Made by a program: the position numbers and the translations under genes | From: Isurus oxyrinchus | Taxonomy: Eukaryota | Assembly (NCBI GenBank): GCA_026770705.1 | Contig: JANJGN010000009.1 | Location: 164,176,001-164,240,000, forward strand | Direction of reading: 5' to 3' | DNA: 64,000 bases | The notes under the pieces: generated by a model | Seen by the model: only the letters and a program-made list of their open reading frames with translations | Told to the model about the DNA's origin: nothing | Database searches by the model: none | In this document: positions 50,274-60,627 of the stretch, one piece after another | Layout: every line of letters begins with the position of its first letter | Numbering within the stretch: the first letter of the stretch is position 1

Positions 50274-53200
50274 AAAAAACAAAAATACAAACAAAAAACT
50301 GCGGATGCTGGAAATCCAAAACAAAAAGTAAGAAATACCTGGAAAAACTCAGCAGGTCTGGCAGCATCGGCGGAGAAGAGCACAGTTGATGTTTCGAGTC
50401 CTGATGACCCTTCAACAGAACTAAGTAAAAAGAAGAGAGGGGTGAAATATAAGCTTGTCTAAGGGGTGGGGGTGGGGGTGCGGGTGGTGAGAGAAGGGGA
50501 GAGGTGGTTGTTGGGACAAGCAAGCAGTGATAGGAGGAGATAACCAAAAGATGTCACAGACAAAAGAACAAAGAGGTGTTGAAGGTGGTGATATTATCTA
50601 AAAGAATGTGGTAATTAAGAACGTATAGCAAGACAAGCAAGGTACAGATAGGTCATGTGGGGGTGGGGTGAAATAAGACTAAAAGGGCATAAAATGTATA
50701 GATAAATGATCAGTGGAATACATTAAAAATATTGCAAATAGGTGGGAAAAGAAAAATCTATATAAATTATTGGAAAAAAGAAAAAGGATGGGGAAGAAAT
50801 GGAAAGAGGGTGGGGATGGAGGAGGGAGTTCAAGATCTAAAATTGTTGATCTCAATATTCAGTCCGGAAGGCTATAAGGTGCCTAGTCGGAAGATGAGGT
50901 GCTGTTCCTCCAGTTTGCGTTGAGCTTCACTGGAACATTGCAGCAAGCCAAGGACAGACATGTGGGCAAGAGAGCAGGGTGGAGTGTTAAAATGGCAAGC
51001 GACAGGGAGGTTTGGGTCATTCTCTGCAGACAGACCGCAGGTGTTCTGCAAAACAATCACCCAGTCTGCATTTGGTCTTTCCAATGTAGAGGAAACTGCA
51101 TTGGGAGCAACGAATGCAGTAGACTAAGTTGGGGGAAATGCAAGCGAAATGCTGCTTCACTTGAAAGGAGCGTTTGGGCCCTTGGACGGTGAGGAGAGAG
51201 GAATTGAAGGGGCAGGTGTTGCACCTTTTGCGTGGGCATGGGGAGTTGCCATAGGTGGGGGTTGAGGAGTAGAGGGTGATGGAGGAGTGGACCAGAGTGT
51301 CCCAGAGGGAACGATCCCTATGGAATGCCACCGGGGGGGTGAAAGGAAGATGTGTTTGGTGGTGGCATCATGCTGGAGTTGGCGGAAATGGTGGAGGATG
51401 ATCCTTTGAATGTGGAGGCTGGTGGGGTGATAAGTGAGGACAAGGGGGACCCTATCATGTTTCTGGGAGGGAGGAGAAGGCGTGAGGGTGGATGCGCGGT
51501 AGATGGGCCGGACACGGTTGAGAGCCCTGTCAACGACCGTGGGTGGAAAACCTCAGTTAAGGAAGAAGGAGGACATCTCAGAGGAACTGTTTTTGAAGGT
51601 AGCATCATCGGAACAGATGCGACGGAGGCAAAGGAACTGGGAGAATGGGAAAGTGTCCTTACAGGAAGCGGGGTGTGAGGAGCTGTAGTCGAGGTAGCTG
51701 TGGGAGTCGGTAGGCTTGTAATGGATATTGGTGGACAGTCTATCACCAGAGATTGAGACACAGAGGTCAAGGAAGGGAAGGGAAGTGTCAGAGATGGACC
51801 ATTTGAAAATGATGGAGGGGTGGAGATTGGAAGCAAAATTAATAAATTTTTCCAGGTCCAAACGAGAGCATGAAGCGGCACCGAAGTAATCATCAATGTA
51901 CCGGAGAAAGAGTTGTGGGAGTGGGCCGGAATAGGACTGGAACAAGGAATGTTCCACATACCCCATAAAGGGACAGGGGCTCATGTGGGTACCCTTAGTC
52001 ACACCTTTTATTTGGAGGAAGTGAGAGGAGTTGAAGGAGAAATTGTTCAGCGTGAGAACAAGTTCAGCCAGATGGAGGAGAGTAGTGGTGGATGGGGATT
52101 GTTCGGGCCTCTGTTCGAGGAAAAAGCTAAGGGCCCTCAGACCATCCTGGTGGGGGATGGAGGTGTAGAGGGATTGGACGTCCATGGTGAAGAGGAAACA
52201 GTTGGGGGCAGGGAACTGGAAATTGTTGATGTGACGTAAGGTGTCAGAGGAATCACGGATGTAGGTGGGAAGGGACTGGACAAGGGCAGAGAAAAAGGAT
52301 TCAAGATAACGAGAAATGAGTTCCGTGGGGCAGGAACAGGCTGACACGATCAGTCTGCCGGGACAGTTCTGTTTGTGGATTTTGGGTAGGAGGTAGAAGC
52401 GGGCCGTCCGAGGTTGGGCGACTATCAGGTTGGAAGCTGTGGGAGGAAGATCCCCAGAGGGGATGAGGTCAGTGACAGTCCTGGAAACAATGGCTTGATG
52501 TTCAGTGATGGGGTCATGGTCCATGGAGAGGTCAGAGGAAGTGTCTGCGAATTGACGCTCAGCCTCTGTGAGGTAGAGGCCAGTGCGCCAGACAACAACA
52601 GCACCACCCTTGACAGCGGGTTTGATGACAATGTTGGGGTTGGATCTGAGGGAACGGAGTGCAGTAAGTCACAAAACAACTGTTTGCTGAAATGCTAAAC
52701 AAAGATAAATATTGAGATAAAAGCAAAGAACTGCGGATGCTGGAAATGCAAACCAAAGACAGAAATAGAAATATCTGGAAAAACTCAGCAGGTCTGGCAG
52801 CATCGGTAGAGAAGAGCACAGTTGATGTTTCGAGTCCTCATGACCCTTCAACAGAACTAAGTAACAATAGGAAAGGGGTGAAATATAAGCTGGTTTAAGA
52901 GGAAGGTGGGTGCGTTGTTGGGACAAGAAGCCAGTAATAGGTGGAGATAACCAAAAGATGTCACAGACAAAAGAACAAAGAGGTGTTGAAGGTGGTGATA
53001 TTTTCTAAAGGAATGTGCTAATTAAGGGTAGAAAGCAGGACAAACAAGGTACAGATAGACCTAGTGGGGGTGGGGTGGGGTGAAGGAATACTAAAAATTC
53101 TAAAAATTAGAGATTAACAGTGGATGGAAATACATTTAAAAATAATGGAAATAGTTGGGAAAAGAAAACTCTATATAAACTATTGGAAAAAACAAAAAGT

Positions 53201-55705
53201 GGAGGAAGAAACGGAAAGGGGATGGAGATGGCGGTTGGGGCCAGGGAACTGGAAATTGTTGATGTGACATAAGGTGTCAGAGGAATCACGGATGTAGGTG
53301 GGAAGGGACTGGACAAGGGGAGAGCGAAGGGAGTCAAGAAGAGAATTGAGTTCCGTGGGGCAGGAAGAGGCTGACACGATCAGTCTGCCGGGACAGTCCT
53401 GTTTGTGGATTTTGGGTAGGAGGTAGAAGCGGGCTGTCCGAGGTTGGGAGACTATCAGGTTGGAAGCTGTGGGAGGAAGATCTCCAGAGGAGATGAGGTC
53501 AGTGACAGATCTGGAAACAATGGCTTGATGTTCAGTGGTGGGGTCATGGTCCAGGGAGAGGTAGGAGGAAGTGTCTGCGAGTTGACGCTCAGCCTCCACA
53601 AGGTAGACGTCAGTGCGCCAGACAACAACTGCACCACCCTTGTCAGCGGGTTTGATGGCAATGTTGGGGTTAGGCCTGAGAGAATGGAGTGCAGTATGTT
53701 CAGAGAGAGACAGGTTAGAATGGGTGAGAGGAGCAGAGAAATTGAGACGACTAATGTCACGCCGACAGTTCTCAATGAAAAGATCAAGAGAAGGTAAGAA
53801 TCCAGAGGGAGGGGTCCAGGTGGAGGGAGAATATTGGAGGTGGGTAAAAGGATCCGTTGAATGGGGAGAGGACTCCTGCCCAAAGAAGTGAGCCCGGAGA
53901 CGAAGACGGTGGAAGAAGAGTTCAGCATCATGCCGAGCCCGAAATTCATTGAGGTGAGGACGTAAGGATATGAAACTAAGTCCTTTGCTGAGCACTGAAC
54001 GTTCAGCATCAGAGAGGGGAAGGTCAGGGTGTATAGTGAATACCCGACCGGGGCTGGGATTGGAAGATGGGGTGGGGACAGAGGGACAGGCAGGGTTGGA
54101 GGGTCCTGGATGTGTGTTGGTATCACTGAGTTGTTGCAGCTTGCGTTCCTTAGCACTTGAGAGAAAGAGAAAAGGTTTCTTGTTGAGGCGACGGATGAGA
54201 CGAAGAATAGAATGAAACTGGGGGCACGGGCAGCTTTGGAAAGGGGTACGGCGATGCTGCTGGAGGGAGAGGTCGAATGTGTTCATATGGCAGCGCATGG
54301 CACTGAGTGTGGATCTCAGAATGCAACGGGAACAGTATTCCGAGGAATGTTGTATGTCCCAGAGATACCTGTAATCCTGGGTTGGTTCGAATCCGATGGA
54401 ATTTCAGTTGAGATCCACATGGGGTAAGTCGGAGACGGAGACAGTCACTGAGAAAGGAAATATGGCTGTGAAAGCGGGTTTTAGTAAACACCTTGTCAAA
54501 CACCAGGAGAGAAATGGAAAGCAATGAAGGTAAATAAGGCAAAAGAGAGATATGAAAATCCTGACGGAGAGTAGTACAAAACTTCTTTAAGGTAGGGATG
54601 TCTTGAAGAGAAGTGGCAGTCAATTAAACACGGATAAAAGCAAAAAACTGCGGATGCTGGAAATTCAAAACAAAAACAGAAACATAAATAGCTGGAAAAA
54701 CTCAGCAGGTCTGGCAGCATCAGCGGAAAGAGCACAGTTGATGTTTCGAGTCCTCATGACCCATCAACAGAACTAAGTAAAAATAGGAGAGGGGTGAAAT
54801 ATAAGCTGGTCTAAGGGGTGGGGGTGGGTGGTGGTGGAGGGAGAAGTTGTTGGGACAAGCAAGCAGTGATAGGAGGAGATAACCAAAAGATGTCACAGAC
54901 AAATGAACAAAGAGGTGTTGAAGGTGGCGATATTATCCAAAAGATTGTGCTAATTAAGGATGGGTAGCAGGACAAGCAAGGTACATGGTGGCATCATGCT
55001 GCAGTTGGAGGCGGAAATGGCGAAGAATGATCCTTTAGTGCGGAGGCTGGTGGAGTGATAAGTGAGGACAAGGGAGACCTCTTCATGTTTCTGGTAGACT
55101 TGCTGCCTTCTTCCAGTGAAGCTCAATGCAAACCGGAGGAACAGCACGTCATCTTCCGACTAGGCACTTTAGAGCCATTGGGACTGAATATTAAGTTCAA
55201 CAATTTTAGATCATAAACTCCCTCCTCCATCCCCACCCCCTTTCTGTTTCTTCCCCCTCCTTTTTCCTTTTTCCAATACTTTATATAGATTTTTCTTTTC
55301 CCACCTATTTCCATTATTTTTAATGTATTCCACCGATCATTTATCTATACCTTTTAAGCCCTTTAAGTCTTATTTCACCCCACCCTCCACTAGAGCTATC
55401 TGTACCTTGATTGTCCTGCTATCCATTCTTAATTAGCACATTCTTTTAGATGATGTCACCACATTCAACACCTCTTTGTTCTTTTGTCTGTGACATCTTT
55501 GGGTTATCGCCTCCTATCACCGCTTGCTTGTCCCAACAACTACCGCCGACTTCTCTCTCCACCGCCCCCCCCGCCCCCCGACCCATTAGACCAGCTTATA
55601 TTTCACCCCTTTCCTATTTTTACTTCGTTCTGTTGAAGGGTCATAAGGACTCTAAATGTCAACTGTGCTCTTCTCTGCCGATGCTGCCAGACCTGCTGAG
55701 TTTTT
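50274..55705 (-). mobile_element. Penelope-like retroelement array (RT plus GIY-YIG endonuclease) with tandem and inverted pseudo-LTRs; present only in copy B
   Basis: RT FTMDVQSLYTSIPH..FLRYIDD (51553-52524, and N-terminal part 53180-54298); GIY-YIG NLVYCIRC...LYIGKTK.RLGDCFAEH (50872-51331); four pLTR copies; candidate TSD CCAGGTTGG(A/G)GAGT at 50260 and 55706. Confidence 0.93.
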
Positions 55706-56086
55706 CCAGGTTGGGGAGTTCTGGGTGAGGGTTTGAAGGAGCCAGCCTGTATCCTTTAAAGCTGCTCCCAAAATCACACAACCCAGGAACGCAGTTGGGA
55801 ATCCCAGAATTAGGACACACCCGCCATTTTTAAAGGGCTCCTGAATCAACCCAAGTTGGTGAAATCCAGGCGGTCACTTTGGTCTGAAGGCTGCACAAAG
55901 CACAGGGTAGAGGTCCTGGACTGAGACACCTGCCTTTATCTTGTACAGAAAGTGTTCACATGTGAGTGACATGAACATTGCTCATCAAAACAAGGAGCGA
56001 TAGGCAGGGAGACATTCTTTGGAGTTTATTGACAATAATGAACAGTATGTACAAGTGATTAACACCCGTGCCCAGGACGTGCAACT

Positions 56087-56225
56087 GGCCTAAATAGCCA
56101 AGTGGTTATGGTACTGGGTTTGTAACCCCAAGATCAGGAATTCAAATCTCACAATGGCAAAATATGAAACAATGTAACTTGATCTGAATAGGAACAGATG
56201 GAAATGTGTTTGTACTCAAAAGAGT
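56087..56225 (+). mobile_element. tRNA-headed (Thr-TGT-like) short SINE or tRNA pseudogene
   Basis: A box TAGCCAAGTGG, anticodon arm tggg-tttgtaa-ccc with TGT in the loop, B-box-like GAATTCAAATC; acceptor stem does not pair well; followed by a tail ending AAAAGAG. Confidence 0.7.
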
Positions 56226-56239
56226 TACATTTCCTCAAC

Positions 56240-56426
56240 TCTCGACGCCTTCCGTGCTCAGTGGGGACTGGGGTGCTTTATTGACCCCTTTTAGCACTTT
56301 TTGGTTTAAAGTTGTAAGTTTCCTTTAAACTTCGTTCTTGGTTTTACAGCTGACCTAAATTAGGGGCTGTCCCTTATTTATCCTAATTTTGTAAATTTAG
56401 TTTAATTGTTTTGACTCTATAAGAGT
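56240..56426 (+). mobile_element. Tx1-type 3' end, stacked unit 2
   Basis: Similar to 57063-57259; bounded by target repeats at 56226 and 56427. Confidence 0.85.
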
Positions 56427-56440
56427 TACATCTCCTCAAC

Positions 56441-57259
56441 CCCCGTAATATGAGCCGCCTCGGGGACATGTCCTCTGTGCCATTTGGCACAGCAAAGAGG
56501 AGCTTTTTGTATGGACTGCTGCTGCACATCTTCCATTTTCTCGCCCTTGTCCGCCGCCTGGATATGCCCTGGCATGCCTTGTTGCCTTCCGGCAGCGGAG
56601 GCCCCCGATGGGAGGCCCTCTGAGGAGGTGTCCTCCCCCTTTCTATTGGGGACCTGGGTTCGAGGGTGTTGCATGCAGCAGTCCCCTATAATAGGAGAAT
56701 TCATAGGTTCACGGACTCCCAAGACACATGCCCTTTTCGTGGTCTTGTGGAGTCCGTGGACCATGCATACATAGGGTGTGGTAGGTTGCACTCCCTTTTC
56801 AGTTACTTGATGAACCTTTTGTTAATGTTTTGTTTGCACTTCAGCCCCACGCTCCTGATCTATGGACACCCGGTGCGGAAGGGGGTCGGAAAGGAGGAGG
56901 ACCTCCTCGTGAACCTGCTCCTGGGCCTGGCCAAGTTGGCCATTAACAGGTCCAGGCAGCAGGCGATCGAAGGGGGAGTCCCGCCCAATTATTTATCCCT
57001 CTTCCGCGGCTACGGTCGCAGCCGGATGTCCCTGGAAAGGGAGCATGCGGTGTCTGCCGGCACTCTCGAACCCTTCCGTGCTCGGTGGGCACCGCGGGGA
57101 CTGGGGTGTTTTGTTGACCTCTTTTATCACATTTTGGTTTAAAGTTGTAAGTTTCCTTCAAACTTTGTTCTTGGTTTTACAGCTGACCTGAATTAGGGGC
57201 TGTGCCTGATTTATCCCAATTTTGTTAATTTAGTTTAATTGCTTTGACTCTATAAGAGT
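56441..57259 (+). mobile_element. Tx1-clade non-LTR retrotransposon, ORF2 C-terminal fragment plus 3' UTR, stacked unit 3
   Basis: LSIGDLGSRVLHAA..TCPFRGLVESVDHAYIGC..LLLGLAKLAI (decayed CCHC knuckle and L1/Tx1 C-terminus), ORF 56666-57142. Confidence 0.85.
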
Positions 57260-57273
57260 TACATCTCCTCAAC

Positions 57274-57470
57274 TCTCGAGACCTTCTGTGCTCGATGGGT
57301 GACCACGGGGGTTGGGGTGCTTTATCCAGCCTCTTAATCACATTTTGGTTTGATGTTGTAAGTTTCCTTTAAATCATGTCTTTGGTTTTGCAGTGACCCT
57401 AACTTAGGGGCTGCGTTTTATTTTGTTCCTCATTTTGTTAATTTAGTTTATTTGTTTGGCTTTAAAAGAG
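57274..57470 (+). mobile_element. Tx1-type 3' end, stacked unit 4 (closest to 20020-20236)
   Basis: Shares diagnostic sequence with the copy A insertion; bounded by target repeats at 57260 and 57472. Confidence 0.85.
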
Positions 57471-59016
57471 CTACATCTTCTCAACTTTCCTAATCCTCCC
57501 GCTACATCTTGGTGCTCCGCAGACATCCAGAGTGGAAGTAAAGACAGTCTGCTGACTGCTATGCTCTGTCTGTGATAATTTTGGCGGGCGTCCTCTGGAG
57601 GCCTGAGGCCTGGAGGGCCCCGGCTTCCTTTCGAGGTCCTGCTGTGTGGCATTAGCACCCTCCTTGGCCTGTGGACCTAGAGCTGTCAAGGTCACAGTAA
57701 GAGGGGAGTTACCAGGATGAATGGCCCCGGAGGGTACACATGTTGATCCTTCTCGCTATTGGCTGAATTAGCGAGCAGCAGGGGTAGCTGGAGTGAGATT
57801 GAGCTGCCCGCACCCCTCTCTCATACACACTGTCAGGGGCCAACTATACATCAGCAATGGAGTTCAGCCCCACAGCAGTGTAGGAACGGTGCCCTGGACC
57901 AACATCTCCAAGGCACCTACGATCCTACCAGTGTTGACCTTGGTGCATTGACATGCCAGCGCTATCACCTCAGAGTGCAGGTGGATGGATTCCTCCATAT
58001 TAACTGAAAATTTTATTTAAAAAGAGAGAAGGTCACCATCTAATCCTTTATTAACTGTGTTTAATTGTATGCAGTGGTAGCATTAAATAGATGTCTTCAG
58101 GTCTGGGCCTTGTACACACTGTCTCCTGGGAGTTCTGACCAGCTACCCTGCTGTCTTCAGGGAGATCTGGCCAACCATCCTGCTGTGTTCTGGGAGATCT
58201 AAGCAGCTACCCCCTCACATAGGCTTCAGTATTCCCTTAAATGTGTTTCTTCTCTTTCATCTCTCTTTGTTGCAACCAGTCTGAAAAGAAATGCTTTTCT
58301 TCAAAGGATTGATTAAATCAATCTTTACCTCTTAGACTTGTAAAAACAAACTTACTCTATGTTTATGTCACGTCCTTACACCTTTTTACAACCTGCATAT
58401 ATCTCCCTTTGAACTAAAACAACACAATTCAAACTATTTCTGTTATTGCTTCATGTACAAATCTGTTGTAGTTCTTTTTTGTTTATTAACATATCAAAAC
58501 CACTCCAAATTGTTGACTTTTGACCCTATCCACTGATGAGGCAGTCCATGTCATGGAACCATAACCTTAAATCTGGAGATAGGCTCGTCAGGGATGTCAG
58601 GAATCACTTCTTCACGCAAAGTATAGCGGAAATCAGGAACACTCTCCTCAAAAAAGCTCTTGAACTTAAATGAAAATTTCAAAACTGATTGACAGATTTT
58701 ATCTGGTAGCAATATTCGGGTTATGGGACCCCGGTAGGTAAATGGACAGAAGATACTGGTCAGTTGGGATTTAATTGAATTGTGGAACAGGCTGAAGGGG
58801 CTGCATGTCCGAATCCCTTTTCCATGTTCTGGAGCCCCAGTTAATTTTTCAGTGGTCTGGGCCTTGTGAGGAACAATGTGCTGTGAAACAAGCTCACAAA
58901 CAGTTAGCATTTCAAAGAGACACTTTCCAATCACCAGGCAAACTGTGACCTGTGTTGTTTCAGAGTACAGTTTGTGACAGTGAAAGCAGTGAAGGCCTGC
59001 CAAACCTCATTAAAAT

Positions 59017-59156
59017 CAAGTTCTGTCGAAGGGTCATGAGGACTCGAAACGTCAACTCTTTTCTTCTCCATCGATGCTGCCAGACCTGCTGAGTTTTTCC
59101 AGGTAATTCTGTTTTTGTTTTGGATTTCCAGCATCCGCAGTTTTCTTTGTTTTTAT
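59017..59156 (+). mobile_element. 140-bp Penelope pLTR-derived insertion unique to copy B
   Basis: 11-bp TSD CTCATTAAAAT (59006, 59157); empty site at about 23434 in copy A. Confidence 0.9.
59019..59057 (+). ncRNA. Minimal type I hammerhead ribozyme-like motif with variant core
   Basis: AGUU-CUGUCGA-A-GGGUC-AUGAG-GACUC-GAAA-CG-UC-AACU: stem I AGUU/AACU, stem II GGGUC/GACUC, minimal stem III; activity untested. Confidence 0.6.
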
Positions 59157-60627
59157 CTCATTAAAATGTTGGTGAAAGTGTCACTTTTCTCTGGCTAATC
59201 CCTTGACCAAAGAGGGAATTTTAATTCCCCTCCCCCATCCTGCATCGTGTTGAGGCATGATGGGATTTGCTGGATCCAGAACCTTCTCCAGCACGGCTTG
59301 TGATCCAGGAGACACACGAAAGCTTCGCCCCCCCACCCCCAGGCAAATGTTTTATACAATTTCTCCCTCCCCATGATTGGCCAATCCTGCCCCAAGCAGC
59401 AAAGTCACCCTGACTCCCTCCTCGCTGTTGTGCTCCGAGGCAACATTCCCACCAATTTCCAAACTTTTACCATAACCTTCCTACTTGGAAACCAGCCAAA
59501 CATTCAATCAGTGTGCAAGAATTCTGGTGAGATTTTGCTGTTAAATTCGGCACAAACTCAACATTCCTGGTATTTCCAGCTTTCTCACCACCCCACACAC
59601 AGTCCCCCCTCTCGTCTCCACGTACCAGGGTTGAAGTGTTCTATCGCAGCATGCAGAGAACCAGAGCCAATCACATTTACATTCTTATCCAAAGCTACAA
59701 AACATGTAACCGATATCTGACAACATTTTGCCCTCATTTTACCCTTTGCTTTTCTAAGATTCTCTCCAACCAATTCACATTCAACTCACAAACAATGAAG
59801 TAGCATTGGAGGCTCACTACCAGCTACGAAGAGATATTGTTCACCATCATATTCATGTTAACATACTCTCAGTATCATAGCTGCTGTTCTGATCTGGAGA
59901 CCTGATATGTTCTGATATAATGGCTGAAAGGGTAACTCAGGCCTCTAAGAGGATGGAGAGATATGGGGATGGATTTTTAAAAAGTATGGTGTCAGGATTA
60001 GAGATGGGTGGGTGTGAAATTTGACACCGCTGGTCTCCATGCCAATTTACTGTTACAATCCCAAGCCCGAAACATTTAGAAAGCAGGCGGCTTGCAGTCA
60101 AGTGGTGGGCAGCTAACTTAGGAAATAACATTTACCAAAGGGGCCAATTAAAGACCCATTCCTGCGCCCACTGGGATTTCATTCAGCAATGCAAGCAGAC
60201 CACATTACCCCTTCAGGATCATGGCCCGGCAGCTGCCGGGTTTTGAAACATAAAATAAACTTACCTGGACTTTCCCCTTGCTGTCTCCATGCTCAGGTCA
60301 GCAACTCCCACCTCACCTGGTGAGGCCCTCTAGCATCAGGAGCCCGCCCTCTGTCCCTGATTGGAAGGTGAGCCAGTTCCAGTCTTTTGATTGGCAAGAA
60401 CATTGAAAATTGCAGTGGGCATGCCTAAAGAATGGTGAATGGTGTCAGGACCTGAAACAATCTCCCATGTCCAGTTCCCAAACCCAAATTTAACATCCAC
60501 CCCATAGAGTGGTAGATGTGTTGGTGAGATTCCAACATGGCAGAGCCTGGCTGAGATGAAGTGCAAAGTTTGAAGAGTATTTGATTATTAAATGTTCAGT
60601 ATCTGAATGTTTCTTTCTTTCCAACAG

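Follow-up and report, generated by a model that had tools for sequence, protein, structure and literature searches.

The end repeats of Penelope-like retrotransposons carry minimal hammerhead ribozymes with the consensus core CUGANGAH, among which GUU is common and which cleave very slowly, even as dimers (Cervera and De la Pena 2014, PMC4209133). The literature has yet to explain why the elements retain these ribozymes (PMC4209133, PMC11167929, PMC8557442). Here we describe hammerhead-like motifs from 64,000 nucleotides (nt) of Isurus oxyrinchus DNA (assembly GCA_026770705.1, contig JANJGN010000009.1, positions 164,176,001 to 164,240,000, forward strand; this whole stretch is called the window). 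Seven motifs in the window are the hammerhead of the end repeat of a Penelope-like retrotransposon, probably of the Neptune/Nematis type, in which core A6 is replaced. A preliminary description of the window saw either a functional natural variant or a family that no longer needs self-cleavage, and the evidence from genomic copies leans towards cleavage that is not needed.

In anatomy the window motif follows the published minimal hammerheads closely: it shares the end-repeat position, the short stem I, the extra nucleotide after A9, the G10.1-C11.1 pair, GAAA, and the palindromic C-G (15.2/16.2) followed by UH, and it fits the consensus CUGANGAH...GAAAN-N-U-H everywhere but at position 6 (PMC4209133). 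The extra nucleotide before stem II, previously listed as a peculiarity of these motifs, is part of that consensus. A6 stands in every row of the 56-motif alignment of the same paper, for which the search required A6, and the core variant stressed in its main text is U3-A8, whereas here position 6 is U or C. We therefore describe the motif as like a Penelope minimal hammerhead and, since it lacks A6, do not count it as a member. Our literature search, which did not cover the 2017 survey of Lunse, Weinberg and Breaker, found no report of a Penelope hammerhead family that varies at position 6.

A natural pyrimidine at this position has been described for the hammerhead of phage Bcep176, whose A6C core, CUGCUGA, recurs here as a C6 side branch (PMC3088659, PMC7151607). 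The phage motif is a single sequence with full stems that has low but detectable activity (PMC3088659) and has been shown to cut in Mn2+ (PMC7151607); ours is mostly U6, is minimal and is fixed in more than 100,000 retrotransposon copies. At 0.3 mM Mg2+ the CUGCUGA core lowers kobs from 0.3 to 3.55e-6 per min, about 10^5-fold (PMC7151607), and other mutants of the CUGA region also have low activity (PMC9901934). The Poseidon element PAc of anole offers a second comparison (Frangieh et al. 2024, PMC11167929). In the reported experiments its reverse transcription starts internally, leaving two 3′ ends about 35 nt apart, and uncut RNA serves as template with no reads at the cut site, as seen here in insertions. 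The PAc hammerhead is canonical, overlaps the start codon and needs its protein to cut, and its dispensability comes from made mutants that leave insertion in vitro unaffected; here, by contrast, the core change is natural and became fixed in vivo, and the open reading frame (ORF) starts about 175 nt downstream of the motif. Naiad and Chlamys are likewise high-copy Penelope-like elements that lack a canonical hammerhead, and Naiad elements thrive without one (Craig et al. 2021, PMC8557442). Those are deep clades without a recognisable motif (PMC8557442), whereas the present change is stepwise, within one lineage with a C-terminal endonuclease, and its A6 ancestors are still in the genome.

All seven 39-nt motifs of the preliminary description are real, on the positions and strands it gave, and all seven have U at core position 6. 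They represent only three independent sites in the window (a duplicate pair, one array and one solo insertion), because the motifs at 9782 and 40412, which share their flanks, are a single insertion that a segmental duplication of about 30.8 kb has doubled, and four others lie within one compound array. The stems and GAAA are kept as described, except that the motif at 55626, already noted for its lost GAAA, also has the first stem I pair broken (CGUU). The extra nucleotide before stem II is U in the motif at 54736, and the 9782 and 40412 motifs read GAAACUUC, a G>T change rather than CpG decay. As had been expected, canonical searches miss the motif: Rfam gives no hammerhead within the window at E values up to 10. 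Chance is ruled out by a 30-nt motif pattern that has 86,203 matches in the genome, against 0 for its reversed control.

Core states and their order in the lineage

The 86,203 matches are exact hits to a pattern with four core letters free; like all the exact-match counts given here, they favour young copies. Core types among the 1,921 and 13,008 matches below were counted by eye from the matches listed. A6 occurs in 136 of the 86,203, a frequency near the T>G rate (4 of 100 among the matches listed, the first 100 of 1,921). C or G stands at position 6 in 1,921 of the 86,203, with CUGCUGA in 87 of the first 100 listed. When the CpG sites are also left free, the genome holds 16,683 A6 copies with the old loop, 13,008 U6/C6 copies with the old loop and 102,701 U6/C6 copies with an ATGAG loop, each against 0 in the reversed control. 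A broad canonical pattern gives 12,580 matches versus 496 in its control, and among the matches listed (the first 100) nearly all look like older stages of the same lineage. No unrelated hammerhead family turned up when the retrieved loci were scanned with a descriptor.

An ORF-intact, putatively autonomous copy of the element stands at locus L063, where three identical CUGUCGA motifs, spaced about 3.35 kb apart, surround two open frames, 865 and 926 residues long. Over 3,339 aligned nt the two units show a single mismatch, plus gaps. Their frames carry a reverse transcriptase (RVT_1, E 7e-08) and a GIY-YIG domain (E 9e-04, below the curated cut-off), with the reverse transcriptase motifs DKG and YIDD and the C-terminal GIY-YIG in a single ORF, and the motif sits in the end repeats that flank it. 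The CX4CX2C linker before the endonuclease (CPRKRCNTC at residue 792) fits the CX2-5CxxC definition of Neptune/Nematis and points to an element of that type. Tandem and inverted insertions with an optional tail of 30-40 nt are found, as in endonuclease-bearing Penelope-like elements. A search of the PDB returned no solved relative.

The claim that the family transposed with U6 is borne out by these ORF-intact, near-identical tandem units together with the scarcity of A6, and the youngest copies genome-wide read CUGUCGA, not CUGANGA. The order of the core states was examined in a sample of 273 distinct copies from 173 sequences, which is non-random in that patterns guided the choice of many loci. 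The 88 copies that extend to the ORF end were used for a tree, with CUGAAGA copies as root and 541 columns left once those of the motif and of CpG sites had been taken out; it forms one ladder from CUGAAGA through CUGAUGA and CUGUUGA to CUGUCGA, with C6 and U4G as side branches. A6 copies are basal with long end branches, followed by CUGUUGA, the ATGAG-loop groups and CUGUCGA, whose end branches are near zero; the outgroup does not fall cleanly on one side of a branch (one row off). The label A6 or pyrimidine changes five to six times on this tree, namely at the main switch, at one interleaved A6 row and at four A6 copies within the U6 clade, all of them from loci fetched for A6 and forming no single group. 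The ladder indicates a single loss of A6 on the main line. The same order follows, independently of the root, from CpG decay, with 38 of 50 sites decayed at the A6 stage (76%), 36 of 66 at the first U6 stage (55%) and 13 of 58 at the ATGAG stage (22%).

These stages revise the direction of change within the core. Core variants had been explained as CpG decay from CUGUCGA, which holds for the stem III changes ACAUC/AUGU and fails for CUGUUGA, a form that is ancestral by the tree, the old-stage copies and the CpG state. Among the 33 copies sampled from the oldest U6 stage, CUGUUGA is the core of 32 and CUGUCGA of none, yet about 45% of the other CpGs in these copies are still intact. The U6/C6 old-loop matches agree, with 96 CUGUUGA and 1 CUGUCGA among the matches listed (the first 100 of 13,008). 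Window copy 50384 groups with the older ATGAG set in the 88-copy tree, as do all four array copies in a shorter tree, so for the array copies the proposed decay order is reversed.

Further core changes followed U6. Among the matches listed (the first 100 of 751), U4G with U6 accounts for 64, versus 16 C and 20 A; across 14 loci it occurs on several backgrounds, three of which share one upstream signature, and it appears to be part recurrent mutation, part small subfamily. C6 arises in several places, often on both arms of one inverted pair. On contigs of three other organisms (A, B and C) no other letter makes up at least 5% at core position 6, which hints that U6 is common to relatives, although older A6 copies may not have aligned there.

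Transcript start and insertion ends

We number the first base of the motif +1, which places the would-be cut site at +35. Of 139 truncated copies with 5′ ends near the motif, 93 end at -9..+8 and only 4 at +33..+39, and loci chosen without regard to the core behave alike (35/54 and 1/54, respectively). TATAWW starts at -29..-32 in 115 of the 130 copies that reach upstream of the motif, and between TATA and +1 lies a spacer that has changed at 17 of 19 sites and is nearly fixed in length. From the insertion ends, rather than RNA reads, we infer that the transcript begins with the 39 nt of the motif. A 3′ splice site at AG/TT as the cause of the +1 ends found no support: 0 of the 139 truncated copies have upstream element sequence in the 300 nt tested.

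Genome-wide junction patterns match 856 times at +1, 327 times at the cut site and 418 times at a control site, the raw 327 being inflated, as 7 of 20 inspected loci are internal changes. After correction, some 7,600 ends are estimated at +1, compared with some 590 at the cut site and some 460 at the control site; the correction rests on small samples (12, 20 and 12 inspected loci for the +1, cut and control sites) with letter odds adjusted, and the +1 pattern spans somewhat more subfamilies than the other two.

At the other end of the insertions, 116 of 273 3′ ends fall at +99..+109 and 68 of 273 at +135, a peak that may partly reflect subfamily divergence. With an anchor that assumes no such end points, 247 of 262 copies extend to +90 or beyond, and 3′ ends at +33..+39 occur in 0 of 199 U6/C6 copies and 2 of 63 A6 copies. 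Since the ends lie past the cut site, without an excess at it, the integrated copies come from uncut RNA, both before and after the core change. Occasional cutting of the RNA is compatible with the lack of cut-site ends. One old A6 copy, L196, ends exactly at +35, as a single case.

Three fold-back insertions (L243, L247 and L281) have the stem I arms, AGTT and the reverse of AACT, as the joint between the inverted and forward copy. The joint looks as if the copied stem had primed its own second strand.

Constraint on the motif and readings of the core change

Since the switch to U6, the main line has taken changes at 78 of 270 sites in the 3′ untranslated region; in the ORF end it has taken them at 13 of 72 sites of one codon position, read as the third, and at 2 of 144 sites of the other two. 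The motif itself took five real changes, namely N7, two loop bases, an A-U to G-U change in stem II, and GUU to GUC; an apparent sixth, at +32, was set aside as CpG decay affecting the group majority. The positions a hammerhead tolerates, like the TATA/initiator consensus, are general knowledge. Four of the five changes fall in 8 tolerant sites out of 38 (p=0.004), and the 30 constrained sites show one compatible change against 5.4-8.7 expected (p=0.03-0.002), p values that are optimistic in that the tolerant sites were picked from the standard consensus after the changes had been seen. The TATA region (1 change in 15 sites) and a downstream box (5 in 47) are constrained as the motif is. Across 144 cells, 98.6% pair, in both stems, and G10.1-C11.1 is kept; covariation amounts to 0 two-sided and 2 one-sided pair types in 16 aligned copies of one lineage. 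At the level of sequence, these counts demonstrate constraint on the motif, whatever its cause.

Folding models do not give the hammerhead as the form of lowest energy, be it as a monomer, in context or as a dimer, and forms with A6 and GUC misfold more strongly. Two structural candidates were rejected. A competing 5′ hairpin (+1..+60) favouring U6/C6 did not exceed shuffled sequences in stability (z between -1.2 and +1.5 across 9 copies), and an origin of U6 as relief from a misfold is at odds with the step that occurred, which widened the gap to the hammerhead fold from 1.4 to 2.4 kcal/mol.

On balance, cleavage by the U6 motif is probably nearly silent and dispensable, with the fold kept as a 5′ leader. 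The main line exchanged core A6 for U and then made more than 100,000 copies. A TATA/initiator promoter would start the RNA at +1, with the motif as leader, and the element's protein would begin reverse transcription about 100 or 135 nt into the end repeat, 65-100 nt past the would-be cut site. Copying would run through the uncut motif, and only uncut RNA would give such copies; short solo or fold-back copies may come from use of the 5′ repeat. A pyrimidine at position 6 would lower the rate by orders of magnitude in Mg2+, as published for C6 and assumed for U6, and selection would keep the leader fold or the promoter sequence rather than cutting. The core change did not harm the element, which fits the anole in vitro data, and copies with further core damage, CUGCUGA and U4G with U6, were amplified all the same.

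Several points weigh against this account. The lack of cut-site ends predates U6: the A6 ancestors show 2 of 53 5′ ends and 2 of 63 3′ ends there, so the end data do not show that U6 changed anything, and the start site itself rests on insertion ends rather than RNA reads. All five post-U6 changes are tolerated by a working hammerhead, as residual catalysis would give. Catalytic G8 and G12 are unchanged, and the 10 core sites alone give p=0.06-0.16. The A6C hammerhead is still active in Mn2+, the anole motif cuts only with its protein, and our literature search found no measurement of an A6U hammerhead. Much of this also speaks for a working natural variant, a possible but doubtful explanation in which U6/C6 slows the ribozyme and residual cutting, with help from protein, a partner copy or metal, is kept by selection. 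In its favour are the post-U6 changes, which respect the hammerhead (p=0.004), GUU to GUC included, the low but detectable activity of natural A6C (PMC3088659), its function in Mn2+ (PMC7151607) and the protein-assisted cleavage of the anole element (PMC11167929). However, minimal motifs are very slow to begin with, and GUU is common among them, so that GUC need not be selected (PMC4209133); U4G + U6 copies were amplified, ends show no excess at the cut site, the 16 aligned copies hold no two-sided compensatory change, and the folding models disfavour the hammerhead form. That the U6/C6 motif is a live conditional ribozyme, cutting only when rescued by the element's protein or an Mn2+-like metal, we consider unlikely.

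If the 39 bases were instead a dead relic, acting as DNA in the form of initiator and downstream promoter elements, their position at exactly +1..+39, the equal constraint on the TATA region and downstream box, and a TATA spacer that varies in letters and hardly in length would all be accounted for, as would the resemblance of +28..+35, GAAACGTY, to the downstream promoter element RGACGTGY of Drosophila Penelope (PMC2377424). The match to hammerhead tolerance would then be due to chance, and the placement of the changes (p=0.004) and the pairing of both arms of both stems (98.6% of cells) make this improbable, as does an early side variant, mismatched in stem II (U-U), that did not found the main line. 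Silencing might also have been favoured in itself, loss of cleavage leaving more intact templates and so causing the burst in copy number. Only uncut RNA yields these copies, U6/C6 copies (102,701 + 13,008) exceed A6 copies (16,683), and Craig et al. hint that hammerhead loss may help proliferation (PMC8557442). We nevertheless hold this to be very improbable, as copies of the first U6 stage (13,008) do not outnumber those of the A6 stage (16,683) and the burst came later, with loop and upstream changes, in exact-match counts that favour young copies.

If cleavage is silent, as we favour, this is a ribozyme caught turning into a non-cutting leader while its element stays active; that the cut may be dispensable is already in print, which limits the surprise (PMC11167929, PMC8557442). 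Were U6 still to cut, the hammerhead core would tolerate more in cells than test-tube data say, and a conditional ribozyme would mean more than 100,000 core-variant hammerheads, with a constitutive cutter at the RNA cap turned into a switch. The lineage is a natural experiment in which the A6 ancestor, U6, the later U6C7, C6 and G4U6, and ORF-intact copies are ordered within one genome.

Later subfamilies show further changes around the motif. The youngest has a second GGACTCGAA just upstream of +1 (L063:5045-5059), the identical word to +22..+30, and a TATA box 3 nt farther from the motif. In abundant later subfamilies, the ATGAG loop makes an upstream ATG with an 18-codon frame (L063:5077-5133), out of frame with the main ORF.

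Features of the window

The window holds immunoglobulin V-set exons in a duplicated cluster and belongs to a CpG-poor genome of 4.98 Gb; the sites of the element within the window are collected in Table 1.

Table 1. Penelope-like features of the window (window coordinates)
Feature	Position	Strand	Remark
CUGUUGA motif, 5′ end of a solo copy of about 103 nt (9782-9884)	9782..9820	+	
Motif, segmental duplicate of the 9782 insertion	40412..40450	+	
Decayed compound Penelope-like array: three head-to-tail end repeats and ORF pieces	50277..55711	-	
CUGUUGA motif, 3′-most end repeat of the array, older ATGAG-loop subfamily	50384..50422	-	
TATA-like box (TATATT), 29 nt upstream of the first base of the 50384 motif	50446..50451	-	Putative promoter role
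ORF piece with reverse transcriptase	51553..52668	-	Pfam RVT_1, E 1.2e-05, below curated cut-off
CUGUUGA motif, middle end repeat of the array	52820..52858	-	
Open piece, 5′ part of the element's ORF	53180..54403	-	Resembles the intact L063 ORF
CUGUUGA motif, end repeat upstream of the ORF start	54736..54774	-	
Inverted 5′-truncated copy inside the compound array	55099-55711	+	
Decayed motif, inverted copy of the array	55626..55664	+	
Short solo insertion, about -3 to +138 of the putative transcript	59016..59156	+	
Hammerhead-derived motif, youngest subfamily type (CUGUCGA, GUC)	59019..59057	+	Would-be cut after 59053

The short solo insertion is flanked by two copies of CTCATTAAAA (59006-59015 and 59157-59166), a 10-nt target duplication, and is missing from the paralogous site near 23434. 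The paralogue near 19794 lacks the entire 5.6-kb stretch 50237-55872 that contains the Penelope array; this stretch also holds some non-element sequence, and insertion or deletion could each account for the difference.

The segmental duplication relates window positions 1-28280 to 30845-64000 in blocks that are 94-99% identical and carry the V-set and other immunoglobulin exons, a cluster that we take to resemble CD300/pIgR-type genes. A 27-nt tandem repeat at 7550-9100 and 38370-39770 is open in several frames, differs in copy number between the duplicates and on the minus strand reads as a Ser/Thr/Ala-rich, mucin-like stretch. Decayed pieces of a long interspersed nuclear element, with an endonuclease/exonuclease/phosphatase match, lie at 42645-45879 and 12218-15241.

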